Numbered from the stretch's first letter, positions 31,259 to 59,346 are shown. The stretch: 64,000 bases of DNA from Syntrophales bacterium (GCA_035450185.1 DAOTMG010000005.1:7597-71596); one strand, 5' to 3'. Program-made: numbers and translations. Notes: generated from the letters alone by a model not told the origin.

Positions 31259-31287
31259 TTGACGCCCCCGGCCATCTATGGTAGGGC
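31259..31287 (+). promoter_or_regulatory. Sigma-70-like promoter of the panB leader
   Basis: TTGACG, 17 nt, TAGGGC (weak -10). The geometry relative to the conserved leader block matches the panC leader promoter. Confidence 0.45.
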
Positions 31288-31292
31288 ACAAT

Positions 31293-31336
31293 CACCCGCT
31301 TGGATCCGTGAATTCAGGACTGAGACGGAAGGTTGG
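31293..31336 (+). promoter_or_regulatory. Conserved pan-operon leader element, copy 1 (candidate cis-regulatory RNA)
   Basis: CACCCGCTTGGATCCG-[variable hairpin]-GACGGAAGGTTG. The same two blocks occur upstream of panC on the other strand (55133..55173). Confidence 0.6.
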
Positions 31337-31368
31337 AAGAACATAGGATGTCCCCATCGCTTTGACAA

Positions 31369-31401
31369 GGCCTTCCCCTGCCGTCCGGAAGGCCTTTTTT
31401 T
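31369..31401 (+). terminator. Intrinsic terminator/attenuator in the panB-operon leader
   Basis: Stem GGCCTTCC/GGAAGGCC with a 10-nt loop, followed by T7. It ends 5 nt before the ATG at 31407. Confidence 0.7.
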
Positions 31402-31406
31402 CGATC

Positions 31407-32318
31407 ATGAAAGACCCCGCGGTAAGAAAGGAAATGGAAAAGGACGCCGTCGCCATTCTCGGTCTCGGCAAGGTCGGCACCGCCGTCGGCTTTTTCCTTC
31501 GCCGTGCCGGATACCCCGTCTCCGCCGTGGCCGCTCGTTCGACGGCGTCGGCATCCAGAGGAGTGGAATTCACCGGCGGCACGATCTTCGAGGATTACAC
31601 GGAAGCGGCGCGGAGGGGATCCTTCATCCTGATCACGACGGTCGATGACGCCATTGCCCCCGTCTGCGAAAGGATCGCCCGGGGAGGCGCCGTCGGCCCC
31701 GGGAAAAAGGTCGTGCACATGAGCGGCGCCTGCGGACTCGACGTTCTTCGATCCGCGAAGGAGACGGGAGCCTCTGTGGCCTGCATACACCCGATCCAGT
31801 CCTTTGCCGATGTCCGAAACGCCATCGAAAACATCCCGGGCAGTTCTTTCGGTGTCACCGCCGAAGGGGAGATCGAGCCCTGGGCCCTGCAGGTCGTCCA
31901 GGACCTCGGCGGCCGATCGTTCATCATCGCCGATGCCGACAAACCTCTGTACCACGCGGCGGCATGCATGGCCTCCAATTACCTGGTCACCCTGATGCAC
32001 CTCGTCGAGAGGATCTATCGGAGGATCGGCCTCGAAGGCGACGATGCCCTGCGGGCGTTCTGGCCTCTCGTCCGCGGGACCATCCGGAATATCGAAGCGA
32101 AGGGAACGGTCCAGTCTCTCACGGGACCCATCTCCCGTGGAGACGTCGGCACCGTGAAGAAGCACGTGGAGGCCTTTGAGAAGGAAATCCCGGAACTGGA
32201 CGGCCTCTACAGGGCCCTGGGTCTCCAGGCCGCAGCCGTGGGGTTTGAAAAAGGGACGCTTTCTGCGGAGAAGGTTCAGGAAATCAAAACGCTTCTCATG
32301 GAGGGGAGATTGAAATGA
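31407..32318 (+). CDS. Rossmann-fold DUF2520-type oxidoreductase (candidate ketopantoate reductase)
   Basis: [10 protein letters not shown] dinucleotide-binding motif and a DUF2520-like C-terminal half. The stop overlaps the panB start. The start is uncertain (31407 or 31434). Confidence 0.7.
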
Positions 32319-33130
32319 GCACACAGAGCAAGATCACCACCGTCACCACCGCCGTCGTCCGGCAGATGAAACAGAAAAAAGAGAAAATCACCATGTTGAC
32401 CGCCTACGATTACCCGACGGCGGCGGCCGTGGACGAGGCCGGCATCGACATCATCCTCGTCGGGGATTCGCTGGGCATGGTGGTCCTCGGGTATGACAGC
32501 ACGCTGCCCGTGACGATGGAGGACATGATTCGCCACACCAAGGCGGTCACGCGGGCGGCGAAGCGCGCCATGGTGATCGGCGACATGCCGTTCATGTCCT
32601 ACCAGGTTTCCGTCGAGGAGGCCCTGCGCAATGCCGGCCGATTCATGCAGGAGGCCGGGGCCCACGGAATCAAACTTGAAGGGGGCCGGGAGGTTGCAGA
32701 GGTGACGCGCCGGATCGTCCAGGCGGGCATCCCCGTCATGGCCCATATCGGCCTCACGCCGCAGTCGGTGCACCAGCTCGGCGGATACAAAGTGCAGGGC
32801 AAGGATCACCCCTCGGCGATGAGGCTCATGGAAGATGCGAAGATCCTCGAGGAGGCGGGCGCTTTTTCCATCGTCCTGGAGTGCGTGCCGGCGGCGCTGG
32901 CGGAAAAGATCACGACATCGCTCTCGATGGTGACAATCGGCATCGGCGCCGGGGTTCACTGCGACGGGCAGGTTCTCGTCGTCAACGACATGCTGGGGCT
33001 CTTTGAACGATTCACACCCAAGTTCGTCAAAAAATACGCGAATCTGAACGTCGAGATCAAGGCTGCCGTCGGGCAGTACATCCGGGAGGTCCGGGAAGGT
33101 CAGTTCCCCGGCCCGGAACACTCCTTTTAG
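32315..33130 (+). CDS. panB: 3-methyl-2-oxobutanoate hydroxymethyltransferase
   Basis: 271 aa. Motifs include [19 protein letters not shown] and KLEGG. Confidence 0.95.
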
Positions 33131-33206: not shown

Positions 33207-33542
33207 TCAGGGTTTTTCTTCGAGCTTGCCGGCCTTGAAGGCCTCGAGGGCGGATTGGACCGTCCCCGAGGCGCCGATGTAGATCCTGACGTCGGCCGTC
33301 CTCAGGGCCGCCGTGGCCTTGCGACCGATGTGCCCCGTGAGGACCGCATCCACCCGCTGTCCGGCTACGAGATTCCCGGTAGCCGTTCCCCGGGTCACTC
33401 ACTGGGCCCGTGCGCCTGTGTTTTCAACGGCCCGGTGCTCGTTGGTTTCCATGTCCCAGAAGACAAAGAAGGGGCAACGACCGAAGCGCGGGTCCACCAG
33501 ATCCGTCAAATCCGGACCCGTCGACGAAATGGCGATCTTCAT
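33207..33542 (-). CDS. NifB/NifX-family (FeMo-cofactor-binding-like domain) protein interrupted by one in-frame TGA (33401..33399): selenocysteine candidate or disrupted gene
   Basis: Strong RBS AAAGGAG before the ATG at 33542. The two 63-codon track ORFs are contiguous in the same frame. Together they make a typical 111-aa family member (MKIAISS..DPRFGRCPFF..VENT..[TGA]..VDAVLTGHIG..VRIYIG..EAFKAGKLEE). Confidence 0.6.
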
Positions 33543-33668
33543 TTCTTCTCCTTTCCATGGACCTGTTGGATCCCGAAGGAACGCTTTCAATCCTTTGAAT
33601 CGCGAACCCGGTGGATCCTCGCGGTTTTCCGGAGGGGCCCGCCGGCGGTGTCTTTTCCATGCCGGCCC

Positions 33669-34943
33669 TCAGGGCTGCCGGCTCTTTCCGCCCTCGAGCT
33701 CATCGACGAGTTCGTCGGTCCTTTTCACCCGCTCCGCCATCTCCTTCAGAATCCCGTGGACGATCTTGGGATTCTCCCGGAGGATGGTCTCGAAATTGTC
33801 CTCCCGGATCCTGATCAGGCGTGTGTCGTCCTCGACGGCAATGACCGTTGCCGTCCTCGGCGACCGAAGCAGCATGGCCATTTCCCCGAAATAGTCCCCT
33901 TCCTTCAGAACCCGCAGCGTCTTGTCCTTCCGGCGGATCTCCACGGCCCCGTTGAGGATATAGAACATGTCCGTCCCTTCCTCCCCTTCCCTGCAGACCA
34001 CTTCCCCGCGGCTGTAGGGTGTCGCAAACCGGTCCATGATTCTTCGCGGCCCCTTTCTCGACGGCAGGGACTTCTGCTGCAGGAGGCCGGAGAGGAGAAG
34101 GGCCTCCCGCCTGCGGATATTGGCCATGATCTCCATCCCGAAGAGGATGACGACGAACTGGTAGTACACCCAGATGATCAGGATGAAAATCGCCTTCAGG
34201 GAACCGAAGGTGACGCCGTAGTTCGGGTTGAACTTCAGAAAGAGGAGAAAAACCGGTTTCGCAACCAGCCAAAGGGTGGCGGTGATGAACGATCCGACCG
34301 CGAGGTTCGCGGCCTTCAGCTGGACGGGGCAGAAGATGAGATAAAAAAGGGCGATGACCAGCGTCGCCAGAAGCGGGGCGGAGATGACGTTGAAAACACG
34401 CATGAGGACACCCGGGCTCCCGGCATAGGGCGTCATGACGGAGGCGTAGAGGATTTCGCCGAGGATCACGCCGATGAACAGAACCAGGAGGATGAAAACG
34501 GCAACGGCATTGATGAGTTTGTTTTTCCAGTAGGGAGCATCCCTCTCTTCCTTGAAAATCCGCAGAAAAGCAAAACGCAGAGACGACGCCAGCGGGGTGA
34601 CCGACCAGAAGAGCACGATCAGGCTCAAAAGGCCCCATGTCCTCTGCTTCGCCACGGCGTAGACTTCCTTGAGCAACACCTTGTGATAGGCGGGAAAGAT
34701 CTGCTCTGCGAGATTCTCGATCCCTCTGACGGCCGCCTGGGAGGTCAGAATGACGTTGCTGAGAATATAAACGATCAGGATGAAGAGCGGGATCAGAGAA
34801 AAAAATCCGAAAAAGGCGAGGGTCGCCGATGTCTCCAGTCCGTTGTTGCGCCCGAAGGACCTGAGGGACCCCCGGAGAATCAGGTAGGGGTACCCGAATC
34901 GCTCTTCGGGGTCATCGATGAAATGTCTAATTTTTTCACGCAT
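33669..34943 (-). CDS. YihY/BrkB-family membrane protein fused to a C-terminal cyclic-nucleotide-binding domain
   Basis: Start taken at MREKIRHFIDDPE. The N-terminal two-thirds is multi-TM YihY-like (ATLAFFGFFSLIPLF). The C-terminal domain has the CAP_ED signature GDYFGEMAMLLRSPRTATVIA. Confidence 0.8.
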   Translation of the reverse strand: MREKIRHFIDDPEERFGYPYLILRGSLRSFGRNNGLETSATLAFFGFFSLIPLFILIVYILSNVILTSQAAVRGIENLAEQIFPAYHKVLLKEVYAVAKQRTWGLLSLIVLFWSVTPLASSLRFAFLRIFKEERDAPYWKNKLINAVAVFILLVLFIGVILGEILYASVMTPYAGSPGVLMRVFNVISAPLLATLVIALFYLIFCPVQLKAANLAVGSFITATLWLVAKPVFLLFLKFNPNYGVTFGSLKAIFILIIWVYYQFVVILFGMEIMANIRRREALLLSGLLQQKSLPSRKGPRRIMDRFATPYSRGEVVCREGEEGTDMFYILNGAVEIRRKDKTLRVLKEGDYFGEMAMLLRSPRTATVIAVEDDTRLIRIREDNFETILRENPKIVHGILKEMAERVKRTDELVDELEGGKSRQP

Positions 34944-35252
34944 GGCCCATTCCGTTCTGCGGCATGAGAGGAGAGAGGCCCTTTCGTCGGCCGCTCCGGG
35001 CACCCGGAGCCGGTGGGGGATTATAGTGAAAGGGTTTACGCCGTGTCAAACACTGAAAATGGCGCGATCCGCCGCGACAGGCCGGGACCGAAACCGTCCC
35101 GACGGACCCGGCTGAGTCACGGGTCCGGTCAAAACCCGCTGCGATCTTCGCCTCCCCAGGGTTCATGCCGGAATTGACAGCCTCCCCGTTTGGTGCTAAA
35201 GAAGCTCGACACTCTCATTTATTCGGGTACTTTCATCCCAGAGCTCCCGTTT

Positions 35253-54155: not shown

Positions 54156-55049
54156 TCACACCCGCTTTTCAGGGTGAGCCCTCTGTCCCTTTGGCAATTC
54201 CAGAGGATCGCCGAAAACGTAGTTGTCGATCAGCCTCGCGACACCGACCCTCACGGCCAGCGCGATGACTTCCTTCCCCTGAAGGCGATTTACGTCCTTC
54301 ATCGTCGTGGTGTCACAGATCTTCACGTAATCGATCTTGCCCTCGGGATGCCGGCCGATGAACCGGGTGACCTCTTCAATGATCTTTCCGGCATCCCTTT
54401 CCCCCTTCTCGTAGAGCGTCTTCGCCATGAGGAGCGACCGGCTCAGGCTCAGCGCGGCCTTCCGTTCATCGGGCTTCAGGTAGGTGTTCCGGGAACTCAT
54501 GGCCAGCCCGTCCGGCTCGCGCACGGTTGGAAGGCCGATGATCTCGAGGTCCATGTTGAGGTCCTCGACCATCCGCCGGATGACCACCAGCTGCTGAAAG
54601 TCCTTCTTACCGAAGACGGCGACATGGGGTTTCACGATGTTGAAAAGTTTCGCGCAGACCGTGGCGACCCCCCGGAAGTGACCCGGTCTGGACAACCCGC
54701 AGAGGTTTTCCGTCACCCCCTCGACATGGACATAGGTCTGGTAGTGTTCCGGGTACATGTCGCGGTCCCCGGGGTAGAAGATGACGTCCACACCGACCTC
54801 CCGGCAGAGCGTCTCATCCCGCTGGAAGTCCCTGGGGTACTTCGCGAGGTCTTCCGTGGGGCCGAATTGCGTGGGGTTGACATAGATGCTCGTCACCAGG
54901 CAGTCCCCCATCTTCCGGCCCGCCTCCATGAGGCTCAGATGGCCCCGGTGGAGGTACCCCATGGTGGGCACAAAGGCTATCTTCTTCCCCGAGTTCCTGA
55001 GCGTTTCGGCGTACCGCTGCATGTCCGCCGCGCCTTCGATGACCTTCAT
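54156..55049 (-). CDS. panC: Pantoate--beta-alanine ligase
   Basis: [14 protein letters not shown] (HIGH-like motif), 297 aa. RBS GAGGG. Confidence 0.95.
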
Positions 55050-56562: not shown

Positions 56563-57573
56563 CTATTTTTCAATCTGATTGAGGGGCCAGCGGGAGACGG
56601 CGTTCAAGTCATAGCCGTCCCGCCTCCCTCTCGCGAGCAGGTGCTCGCCCACGACGGCGATCATGGCCGCATTGTCCGTGCAGAGAACCGGCGGCGGGAT
56701 GAAGACCTCGACGGACCGCCTCTGCGCTTCCTCCATGAACCTGTGCCGCAGCCGGCTGTTGGCCGCGACACCGCCGACCACCGCCACCCGGGTCATGCCC
56801 TTTGATTCCGCAGCCCGCAGGGTCTTATCGACGAGCACGTCGACAATGGCCTCCTGGTAACTCGCGACGATATCCGGGATCTCGCCTTCCTCGATGGGCC
56901 GCTCCCGCTTCCGGATATAGGTCAGCAGGGCCGTCTTGACCCCGCTGAAGCTGAAATCCAGGCTGTCCCGCATGGCACGGGGAAAGTTCAGGGCCCGGGG
57001 GTTACCCGACTTTGCGAGCCTGTCGATGACCACACCGCCCGGGTATCCGATATCGAGGAGCTTCGCCGCCTTGTCGAAGGCCTCACCGGCCGCATCGTCC
57101 CGCGTCTGGCCCAGGAGGACGAAATCCTGGAAATCCCTGGCCAGGTAGACCATGGTGTGCCCCCCCGACACCACGAGAGCCACGAAGGGAAACGCCGGGG
57201 TTCGATCACTCAGGAAGACCGCGGCCACGTGCCCCTCGAGATGGTTCACGCCGACCATGGGTTTCCTGTTCGTGAATGCGACGGCCTTGGCGACGGACAG
57301 GCCGACGAGAAGGGAACCCACGAGCCCCGGCCCCCGCGTCACGGCGATGCCGTCCACGTCACCCAGTTCCAGCCGGGCGTTTTCAAGGGCCTGCAGGATC
57401 ACGGGAACAATGGATTCCACGTGTTTCCTCGAGGCGATTTCGGGGACGACCCCGCCGTATCTGCTGTGAATGTCCACCTGGGATGAAACGACGCTCGAGA
57501 GCACTTCCCGGCCGTCTCTCACGACGGCGGCCGCCGTTTCGTCACAGGAGGTTTCGATCGCGAGCACCTTCAT
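56563..57573 (-). CDS. tsaD: tRNA N6-adenosine threonylcarbamoyltransferase
   Basis: Only the last 337 codons of the 893-aa track ORF are genuine. The real gene begins MKVLAIETSCDETAAAVV and has the HLEGH motif. The upstream part of the ORF is antisense to nadB. Confidence 0.93.
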   Translation of the reverse strand: MKVLAIETSCDETAAAVVRDGREVLSSVVSSQVDIHSRYGGVVPEIASRKHVESIVPVILQALENARLELGDVDGIAVTRGPGLVGSLLVGLSVAKAVAFTNRKPMVGVNHLEGHVAAVFLSDRTPAFPFVALVVSGGHTMVYLARDFQDFVLLGQTRDDAAGEAFDKAAKLLDIGYPGGVVIDRLAKSGNPRALNFPRAMRDSLDFSFSGVKTALLTYIRKRERPIEEGEIPDIVASYQEAIVDVLVDKTLRAAESKGMTRVAVVGGVAANSRLRHRFMEEAQRRSVEVFIPPPVLCTDNAAMIAVVGEHLLARGRRDGYDLNAVSRWPLNQIEK

Positions 57574-57696
57574 GTGCGCCGACGAACATTTCCCTTTCCA
57601 TAAAATTCGGAAAGGTATATACAGGAACGACCGCCGATTGTAAACGGCCATTTTTTTTGAGCTTCCGGGTTGTTCCCGGCGCCCCGGGGTTTTCCC

Positions 57697-59346
57697 ATGG
57701 AAATCAGAACCGATTTTCTCGTCATCGGAAGCGGCATCGCAGGGCTCTGCTTCGCCATCAAGGCGGCGGACCTCGGTTCCGTGGCCATCGTGACCAAGAA
57801 AGAAAAGATAGAGTCGACGACCAACATGGCCCAGGGCGGGATCGCGGCCGTCATGGACGCCTCGGACAGTTTCGAGGACCACGTCCGCGACACCCTGACC
57901 GCCGGGGCCGGGATGTGCCATGAACCCGTCGCCCGCTTCGTTGTGCAGGAAGGCCCCGAGAGAGTCCGGGAACTCATCCGCTGGGGCGTGGAGTTCTCCA
58001 GGAGCAGCGAGGGTCCTCCCCCTGCTTATGATCTCGGGAAAGAGGGCGGCCATTCCCACAGGCGGGTCCTCCATGCCGCCGACCTGACGGGCCGTGAGAT
58101 CGAACGGGCCCTTATCGAAAAGGCGGGGACGAAGAAAAACATCTCCTTTTTCGAGAACTGCATTTCCGTCGATCTGATCCTGGCCTCGGGCGTCCGGGGC
58201 GATGGAGAACCGGCCCCGGCCGGGGAAGACAGATGCCTCGGGGCCTATGTCCTCGACGTGCAGAACAACAGGATCCGCGTTTTTCGCGCCTCCTTCGTTC
58301 TCCTGGCGACGGGCGGTGCGGGCAAGGTCTACCTGATCACATCGAACCCGGATATCGCGACCGGTGACGGCATCGCCATGGCCTACCGGGCCGGCGCCGA
58401 GGTCGCCAACCTGGAGTTCATCCAGTTCCACCCCACCTGCCTGTATCATCCCGATGCGAAGTCCTTCCTGATCAGCGAGGCGGTCCGCGGCGAAGGCGGG
58501 ATCCTCCGGCTGAGAAACGGTTCGAGCTTCATGGAGCGCTACCACCCGATGAAGAGTCTCGCCCCGCGGGACGTCGTCGCCCAGGCCATCGACCGGGAGC
58601 TGAAGAAATCGGGGGAAGAGTACGTCCTTCTGGACATCACCCATCGGGATCCCCGTTTCGTGATGGAGCGGTTCCCCAACATTTACAGAAACTGCCTGAC
58701 CTTCGGCATCGACATCACGAAAGACCCGATTCCCGTCGTTCCCGCGGCCCATTACATCTGCGGCGGTGTCGTGGTGAACGAATACGGAGAGACGAGCATC
58801 GAGAGGCTCTTCGCGGCGGGTGAAGTGGCCTGCACGGGCCTGCACGGGGCGAACCGTCTGGCAAGCAATTCGCTCCTCGAGGCCGTGGTGTTCGCCCACC
58901 GTGCCTTCGAAAGGATCGCCGGGACGTTCCCGCACGTCCGGGATGAGGAGTTGACCGTCCCGGGATGGGACCTGACGGGCGTGACCGAAAGCGACGAATC
59001 GGTCGTCATCACCCAGAACTGGGATGAAGTCCGGAGATCCATGTGGAATTACGTGGGGATCGTCCGGTCCGACAAGCGGCTGGAGCGGGCCAGGAAAAGG
59101 GTGGAGCTCATCCGGCAGGAGATACACGAATATTACAGGAAGTTCACCGTCACCAGGGACCTTCTGGAACTTCGGAACATCACCATCGTGGCGAAACTCA
59201 TCATCGAGTGCGCCATGTCGCGAAAAGAGAGCCGGGGTCTCCACTACAACATCGACTACCCCGACCGGGATGACCGGAACTGGCTCCGGGACACCGTCCT
59301 CAAAAGGCCGACCGGAAACCCCCGAAAGCCCCGGGCCTTCTCCTGA
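57697..59346 (+). CDS. nadB: L-aspartate oxidase
   Basis: FAD motif DFLVIGSGIAGL, a succinate dehydrogenase/fumarate reductase-like flavoprotein fold, and HGANRLASNSLLE. Confidence 0.93.
   Translation: MEIRTDFLVIGSGIAGLCFAIKAADLGSVAIVTKKEKIESTTNMAQGGIAAVMDASDSFEDHVRDTLTAGAGMCHEPVARFVVQEGPERVRELIRWGVEFSRSSEGPPPAYDLGKEGGHSHRRVLHAADLTGREIERALIEKAGTKKNISFFENCISVDLILASGVRGDGEPAPAGEDRCLGAYVLDVQNNRIRVFRASFVLLATGGAGKVYLITSNPDIATGDGIAMAYRAGAEVANLEFIQFHPTCLYHPDAKSFLISEAVRGEGGILRLRNGSSFMERYHPMKSLAPRDVVAQAIDRELKKSGEEYVLLDITHRDPRFVMERFPNIYRNCLTFGIDITKDPIPVVPAAHYICGGVVVNEYGETSIERLFAAGEVACTGLHGANRLASNSLLEAVVFAHRAFERIAGTFPHVRDEELTVPGWDLTGVTESDESVVITQNWDEVRRSMWNYVGIVRSDKRLERARKRVELIRQEIHEYYRKFTVTRDLLELRNITIVAKLIIECAMSRKESRGLHYNIDYPDRDDRNWLRDTVLKRPTGNPRKPRAFS

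Follow-up and report, generated by a model that had tools for sequence, protein, structure and literature searches.

How is the synthesis of pantothenate (vitamin B5) controlled in the Syntrophales? The question is raised by a stretch of 64,000 nucleotides (nt) from a Syntrophales bacterium (GCA_035450185.1 DAOTMG010000005.1:7597-71596; hereafter, the window), in which two operons of the pathway, DUF2520/PanG-panB and panC-panD, are each preceded by a leader that holds a small hairpin of the pan motif family and an intrinsic terminator. Judging from folding models and from the leaders of relatives, we consider it probable that both leaders are transcription attenuators, each built from a single pan hairpin and an antiterminator, in which the effector-bound state would be the off state; as the effector we slightly favour a dimeric protein over a metabolite of the coenzyme A (CoA) pathway. 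Described in 2010, the pan motif is to our knowledge still an orphan regulatory RNA, and vitamin B5/CoA synthesis in these bacteria has no known riboswitch or regulator.

The two leaders share one layout, a TTGAC-17-TA promoter followed by a hairpin at the 5' end of the transcript, a variable spacer, an intrinsic terminator and the start codon. Their parts are listed below in window coordinates; R1 is a covariance model described further on.

31259-31406, plus strand: leader copy 1, 5' of DUF2520/PanG-panB.
31259-31264 and 31282-31287, plus strand: promoter of copy 1, with TTGACG and TAGGGC 17 nt apart, a layout kept in relatives.
31293-31336, plus strand: conserved element of copy 1.
31296-31328, plus strand: pan hairpin of copy 1 (33 nt), with the tail AAGG at 31329-31332, found by RF01749, by R1 and in the minimum-energy fold.
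31369-31376/31387-31394, plus strand: terminator stem of copy 1, with its loop at 31377-31386 and seven U at 31395-31401 (dG -13.3).
55205-55064, minus strand: leader copy 2, 5' of panC-panD.
55205-55200 and 55182-55177, minus strand: promoter of copy 2, TTGACA, 17 nt and TAGATC, a layout kept in relatives.
55173-55130, minus strand: conserved element of copy 2.
55169-55140, minus strand: pan hairpin of copy 2, with the tail AAGG at 55139-55136, found by RF01749, by R1 and in the minimum-energy fold.
55096-55073, minus strand: terminator stem-loop of copy 2, GCCUCCCGUCCUCCGGCGGGGGGC, followed by nine U at 55072-55064 (dG -18.8), with the ATG at 55049.

The original prediction, made from the sequence of the window, had placed the promoter, the element and a terminator with an 8-base-pair (8-bp) stem and seven T correctly in copy 1, including the 5-nt gap between the terminator end and the ATG (31407), and the recurrence of the element before panC on the opposite strand, in the same architecture, was borne out by leader copy 2. 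Its description of two conserved blocks flanking a variable hairpin has to be revised: the blocks are the two strands of one hairpin, of which only the loop varies. In copy 1, the 5' strand CCGCUUGG-A-UCC and the 3' strand GGACUGAG-A-CGG enclose the loop GUGAAUUCA, and the cmscan alignment assigns the bulged adenines to A31304 and A31325. Copy 2 has the same 5' strand, CCGCUUGG-A-UCC, the loop GGUGAC and the 3' strand GGACCGGG-A-CGG, with bulged adenines at A55161 and A55143. A spacer of 36 nt separates the copy 1 tail from a terminator stem in which GGCCUUCC pairs with GGAAGGCC around the 10-nt loop CCUGCCGUCC, and the predicted repetition of the GGAAGG block holds, with one CGGAAGG at 31326-31332 and another in the 3' arm of the terminator (31386-31392).

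Standard scanners recovered these signals incompletely. A consensus promoter scan of the window called neither leader promoter, the final T being absent from each -10 hexamer; support for the promoters therefore comes from conservation. The terminator scan gave the copy 2 terminator 13 pairs (55099-55070) and did not report that of copy 1, because its loop of 10 nt exceeds the scanner limit of 8. The copy 1 terminator is not the upstream gene's own, since that gene is divergent; the copy 2 promoter starts 6 nt past the stop codon of rsmA/ksgA. We collected 119 related leaders, all of which stand before panC (87) or the DUF2520 gene (32). TTGAC stands upstream in all 119, starting 35-38 nt before the stem base in 99, a hexamer starting with TA follows at the 17-nt spacing in 89, and in 99 a gap of 6-9 nt separates the -10 hexamer from the stem. 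The hairpin is thus predicted to begin at, or within about 2 nt of, the transcription start.

Do these hairpins belong to a known class of RNA? The pan motif (Rfam RF01749) was described from Firmicutes, Chloroflexi and delta-proteobacteria, and the delta-proteobacterial RNAs typically consist of a single hairpin (Weinberg et al. 2010, Genome Biol 11:R31, PMC2864571). With Rfam gathering thresholds, the window yielded tRNAs and nothing else. Under E-value thresholds, an Rfam scan of the kind the original prediction had pointed to gave RF01749 as the best match at both sites (22.3-23.4 bits for copy 1 and 26.3 bits for copy 2), but at 22.3 and 26.3 bits neither copy reached the gathering cut-off of 36.2 bits. 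The scores are low because the model describes a tandem of two hairpins, of which only the second, with the tail GAAGG, is present here; the missed cut-off is a property of the Rfam model and no biological feature. The cmscan alignments put two adenines of each copy into the bulge positions of the model, and the minimum-energy folds reproduce the pan hairpin in both copies. Their consensus, CCGCUUGG-A-UCC / loop / GGACYGRG-A-CGG, is a near letter-for-letter match to RF01749, the conserved hairpin and 3' tail sequence (CuGCCUgGAUCc ... gGACcGGGACaGAaGG) is matched nearly position by position, and both copies resemble the delta-proteobacterial rows of the original pan alignment, those of Pelobacter and Geobacter, such as CCGCGCGGAUUC...GAACCGGGACGGAAGG.

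Source and location agree with this assignment. The closest PanC loci lie in metagenome-assembled genomes of Syntrophales/Syntrophaceae and in Syntrophus buswellii, which places the elements within the known taxonomic range, and copy 1 stands in the leader of DUF2520-panB and copy 2 in that of panC-panD. The alignment over the second hairpin and tail, the pantothenate gene context and the likeness to seed rows together vindicate the identification as pan motifs. The tandem arrangement, typical of the family and not required, was found in neither copy; with 8 nt between the -10 hexamer and the stem, the transcript has no space for a first hairpin. We considered whether the terminator might be a degenerate second pan hairpin and rejected this, as the single-hairpin model is silent there and its next match in the genome has 12.9 bits. 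Matches to PyrR, Phe/His leader, ctRNA and several small RNA models of Rfam were likewise rejected; they lie far below their cut-offs and match the generic terminator hairpin only. Both elements are members of the known pan family in its known single-hairpin form, and no new class of element is involved. A search of the available literature found no functional study of the pan motif after 2010.

The element is conserved throughout the order. From an alignment of 30 related hairpins (A1) we built the single-hairpin covariance model R1, which scores copy 1 at 48.7 bits (31292-31338) and copy 2 at 56.5 bits (55173-55130) and in the 2.54-Mb genome of the bacterium finds only these two sites (the next match has E = 9). 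The R1 element is present in 287 of 301 Syntrophales genomes and in 70 of the order's 72 genera, mostly with one or two copies per genome, and Syntrophus buswellii DM-2 carries the same leaders. Confinement to two sites in its own genome, together with presence in nearly all genomes of the order, makes the element more than a chance match. This order-wide single-hairpin form is nearly all missed by the Rfam threshold, which just 3 of 61 related genomes pass.

Conservation in relatives, whose lack would have spoken against the original prediction, extends to the pairing itself. All 11 hairpin pairs are standard in 30 of 30 relatives in A1, and covariation is seen in two places: the base pair is C-G in 24, U-G in 3, U-A in 2 and A-U in 1, and an inner pair is U-A in 19, U-G in 9 and C-G in 2. 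Throughout A1 one pair stays U.G, and a second position carries G.U in 21 of the 30. Most stem letters do not change, and loop length runs from 4 to 13 nt.

A different arrangement was seen in one Syntrophales relative, where locus L003 (1501-1586, minus strand) carries a true tandem pan motif of 43 bits, above the Rfam cut-off. Its first hairpin appears Firmicutes-like, and it is followed by a terminator and then by a pyruvate:ferredoxin oxidoreductase gene (POR_N, 3.5e-71), not by a pan gene. The arrangement occurs in 1 of 10 genomes of that relative's family; this oxidoreductase uses CoA, and the position of the motif may hint at the signal.

What does the terminator add? In 115 of the 119 leaders (85 of panC type and 30 of panG type), a hairpin with a T-run follows 14-63 nt 3' of the pan hairpin, just before the start codon. 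The spacer is unconserved and the terminator 5' arm is stereotyped, as GCCUC(C/U)CGUC in leaders of panC and as GCCUUCCG(G) in those of the DUF2520 gene; in either form it is complementary to the hairpin 3' strand and tail, GACGGAAGG. In an alignment of 83 panC-type strand/terminator pairs (A2), the terminator helix pairs in 85.4% of cells, and six of its pairs change on both sides, a covariation score reached in 0 of 500 shuffles. Mean column identity is 0.89 in the 5' arm versus 0.755 in the 3' arm, which fits a second constraint on the 5' arm. By computation, then, the leaders have the makings of an attenuator, a GC-rich hairpin with a U-run before the start codon and an alternative pairing that excludes the base stem of the pan hairpin.

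Translation from an upstream TTG (31362), which would make the terminator hairpin coding and which the original prediction had named as a reason to abandon attenuation, is unlikely. An in-frame TAG at 31344 leaves this TTG as the only possible start, and it has no Shine-Dalgarno sequence. The frame is closed by a stop inside or after the terminator in 9 of 30 panG-type and 36 of 85 panC-type leaders, so a coding terminator is not conserved; PanG homologues of the same genus align from residue 1. As a separate observation, the panG-type gene itself has no Shine-Dalgarno sequence at normal spacing (31385-31409); the sole candidate, GGAAGG at 31387-31392, lies inside the copy 1 terminator 3' arm, 14 nt before the ATG, and would be exposed solely in the antiterminated fold.

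The proposed antiterminator is formed by the following strands.

31324-31339, plus strand: proposed antiterminator strand of copy 1, GACGGAAGGUUGGAAG, overlapping the base stem of the hairpin and one bulged adenine.
55146-55134, minus strand: proposed antiterminator strand of copy 2, GGGACGGAAGGUU, pairing with 55097-55085.

When copy 1 is folded with the transcript cut before the terminator 3' arm, 31324-31328 pair with 31381-31385, 31330-31332 with 31377-31379 and 31335-31339 with 31372-31376. The partner region is thus 31372-31385, with GACGG paired to CCGUC of the terminator loop, AGG to CCU and GGAAG to CUUCC; the loop is probably so long because its CCGUC serves the antiterminator. The corresponding fold of copy 2 has 12 antiterminator pairs and one A.C mismatch, with a duplex energy of -14.9 kcal/mol versus -6.7 for shuffled arms. 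In the same truncated fold, copy 1 also shows an alternative upper hairpin, formed by CUUGGAU/AUUCAGG pairing (31299-31318); this pairing spans GGATCC/GAATTC restriction-site palindromes and is absent in relatives.

The complementarity is conserved beyond these two leaders. Mean strand/arm duplex energies are -13.1 kcal/mol for panC and -10.3 kcal/mol for panG leaders, compared with -7.2 and -6.0 after shuffling, and for 86 of the 115 leaders no more than 5% of shuffled arms pair as stably as the real one. When the 194 predicted terminators of the genome are ordered by complementarity to GACGGAAGG, the panC terminator takes rank 1 and the panG terminator rank 11. Within each leader class, cognate strand/arm pairs are stabler than non-cognate ones (the observed value is reached in 95 of 5000 permutations for panC and in 1 of 5000 for panG), and pairing in the fixed antiterminator register fills 88.2% of cells in A2, against 35-57% in slid registers.

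We simulated the nascent transcript by cutting each leader just before the terminator 3' arm and scored an antiterminator where the minimum-energy fold contained at least five strand/arm pairs. It was present in 81 of 115 leaders (65 of 85 panC and 16 of 30 panG), and in none of the 81 was the pan base stem fully formed, whereas full-length leaders fold back to the pan hairpin and terminator; under the energy model, the two folds exclude each other. Forcing the complete pan hairpin in the truncated transcript costs a median of 2.7 kcal/mol in panC and 0.9 kcal/mol in panG leaders (4.8 for copy 2 and 1.3 for copy 1). The antiterminated fold is favoured by a few kcal/mol, and a modest binding energy on the hairpin could therefore tip the leader to termination. 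The suggestion that the repeated block acts as an antiterminator by pairing with the terminator 5' arm appears sound in the light of the conserved complementarity, the conserved arm and these modelled folds.

In the mechanism that we propose, each element would lie at the extreme 5' end of one of two messenger RNAs (mRNAs), the first for the PanG-type reductase and PanB and the second for PanC and PanD. During transcription of the leader, the hairpin 3' strand and tail (GACGGAAGG) would leave the 3-bp base stem, and the freed strand would pair with the terminator 5' arm, through GCCUCCCGUC in the panC leader and through CUUCC in the arm and CCU/CCGUC in the loop in the panG leader; once this antiterminator has formed, RNA polymerase would read through. 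An effector that clamps the complete hairpin, including the bulged adenine and the base stem, would allow the terminator to form, and transcription would end about 100-108 nt from its start, resulting in feedback repression. We infer this polarity from the anatomy: the antiterminator uses up the base stem and one conserved bulged adenine, so binding of the conserved structure should favour termination.

The effector may be a dimeric protein, as the discoverers of the pan motif favoured (Weinberg et al. 2010, PMC2864571). The helix has a pseudo-two-fold layout, each strand consisting of 8 nt, a bulged adenine and 3 nt, and with stem letters conserved beyond the needs of pairing around a free loop it is closer in appearance to a protein site than to a typical aptamer.

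Several observations weigh against the model as a whole. Covariation in the antiterminator is weak: one pair changes on both sides (G-C 39, G-U 30, A-U 7), the seven A-U cases come from few lineages already carrying U, and 55 of 500 column shuffles give a paired fraction at least as high as the real one. Its support is therefore conserved complementarity and not independent compensatory changes. The truncated folds of 34 of 115 leaders contain no antiterminator, and in copy 1 the second GGAAG (31335-31339), which lies outside the hairpin, can pair with the terminator arm even when the hairpin is intact, blurring the switch. All results based on energies depend on nearest-neighbour models and related sequences, and the near invariance of the stem letters makes effector and polarity unreadable from sequence. 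Pantothenate, CoA and beta-alanine at 1 mM caused no change in in-line probing of a Geobacter pan RNA (supplement of Weinberg et al. 2010).

In a closely related explanation, architecture and antiterminator are the same and the pan hairpin is a riboswitch aptamer for a metabolite of the pantothenate/CoA pathway other than those tried so far. A small-molecule effector would suit an element that controls exactly the biosynthetic genes and a switch balanced to within about 1-5 kcal/mol. Two bulged adenines flanking a 5-bp helix with the invariant U.G pair form a compact conserved core, no regulator gene linked to the operons was seen in the window, and the tandem motif of one relative precedes a CoA-dependent enzyme. 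At 33 nt the hairpin is nonetheless very small, its conserved stems and variable loop are the reverse of most aptamers, the three compounds named above did not modulate the Geobacter RNA, and the discoverers' preference was for a protein. We regard this explanation as unlikely, and equally doubtful, by a shade the more so, is its boldest form, that a single 33-nt hairpin is a complete metabolite sensor, the missing pantothenate/CoA riboswitch, with a pseudo-two-fold pocket around the invariant U.G helix. If that were true, the ligand would be some untried compound, for instance 4'-phosphopantetheine, dephospho-CoA, an acyl-CoA, pantoate or ketopantoate, and the Syntrophales leaders, with one 5' hairpin and a defined antiterminator balanced to within 1-5 kcal/mol, would offer the minimal construct for finding it.

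It is less likely still that hairpin and terminator are uncoupled, the hairpin stabilising the mRNA or serving as the site of some other protein and the terminator acting as a constitutive leaky damper or under other control. Such a division of labour would account for a hairpin that in almost every leader coincides with the predicted 5' end, as is the case for mRNA-stabilising hairpins, and would sit well with the weak antiterminator covariation and the 34 of 115 truncated folds that lack the antiterminator. It would leave unexplained why conservation of the terminator is stronger in its 5' arm than in its 3' arm, why arm and 3' strand are complementary in two leader classes with different arm sequences, why cognate pairs are stabler than non-cognate ones and why the two terminators rank 1 and 11 among 194 in the genome.

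A reversed polarity, with an effector on hairpin and tail that favours read-through, by holding the antiterminator or blocking nucleation of the terminator, and with operons that are induced, strikes us as very improbable. Sequence by itself leaves the polarity unfixed, and the conserved tail AAGG outside the hairpin could belong to the bound surface, but the conserved structure is the complete hairpin, whose base stem and one bulged adenine the antiterminator consumes. Feedback repression is, moreover, the usual logic of biosynthetic operons. We give almost no credence to a DNA operator, that is, an inverted repeat overlapping the transcription start and bound by a dimeric transcription factor, with no RNA element involved: the element does start within about 2 nt of the predicted start site and contains the palindrome GGATCC, but its pairing depends on G.U (the invariant U.G; G.U in 21 of 30) with wobble intermediates that would be mismatches in DNA, the spacing of the half-sites changes with loop length (about 4-13 nt), the element is confined to the sense strand, and other phyla in the original pan alignment have it in tandem and well away from the promoter.

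With attenuation by a pan hairpin as the favoured mechanism, which genes would it control? The two operons consist of the following genes.

31407-32318, plus strand: DUF2520 gene, first in operon 1 (Pfam Rossmann-like and DUF2520, 2.3e-36), a PanG-type candidate ketopantoate reductase.
32315-33130, plus strand: panB, second in operon 1 (Pfam Pantoate_transf, 3e-122).
55049-54156, minus strand: panC, first in operon 2 (Pfam Pantoate_ligase, 1.1e-105).
54145-53792, minus strand: panD, second in operon 2 (Pfam Asp_decarbox, 3.3e-52).

Oxidoreductases with DUF2520 are homologues of PanG, the alternative ketopantoate reductase of Francisella (PMC4572677, citing Miller 2013), and by this homology the two operons would cover all four steps of pantothenate synthesis. 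An NCBIfam search returned no name for the DUF2520 protein. Three genes of the ApbA/PanE family (ApbA_C) lie elsewhere in the genome, outside the window (contigs C12:24288-24662, C3:87031-87414 and C43:19865-20221), all without a pan leader, and we therefore rejected the idea that the DUF2520 protein is the only candidate ketopantoate reductase. Its membership in the regulon supports a role as the ketopantoate reductase of the pathway in Syntrophales.

The gene after panB is convergent with it (33669-35003, minus strand) and encodes a membrane protein of BrkB/YihY type fused to a cyclic-nucleotide-binding domain; for a longer plus-strand frame at 33255-34967 no family match was obtained, and it is unlikely to be a gene. 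Elsewhere in the window, an open frame of 893 amino acids (56563-59244, minus strand) contains a TsaD domain at residues 580-863 only. Its first ~580 residues have no Pfam match, and the frame is either over-extended or has an unusual N-terminal extension.

These leaders show the pan element in its simplest form, one 5'-end hairpin on both of the operons that make up the whole pathway. The analysis adds the order-wide single-hairpin form, a two-operon regulon that includes the DUF2520/PanG gene, a concrete, mutable and testable model of the antiterminator, and a short RNA that could serve as bait in a search for the effector.

How do the leaders compare with known systems? With the pan motif RF01749 they share the stem that carries one bulged adenine on each strand, the conserved letters (GCYUGGAUCC ... 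GGACYGRGACGGAAGG) and the position in 5' leaders of panB, panC and panD operons. They differ in that both window copies score below the gathering cut-off, being single where the model is tandem, and in that two separately controlled operons are found per genome, one of them headed by a DUF2520/PanG-type reductase, which is not listed in the 2010 text (PMC2864571). The link between terminator 5' arm and hairpin 3' strand was worked out here, and we found no description of it in the parts of the 2010 text consulted.

The expression platform invites comparison with the terminator/antiterminator platforms of riboswitches and of protein-dependent attenuators such as PyrR at pyr and TRAP at trp. Matches to the PyrR model itself are at chance level (15.5 and 18.7 bits, against a cut-off of 54), and the sensor differs, being here a single 33-nt hairpin at the extreme 5' end. 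The likeness lies in the design: as in those platforms, the 3' strand of the sensor hairpin is shared with an antiterminator that competes with an intrinsic terminator close to the start codon, and thermodynamically the full leader is most stable in the off state.

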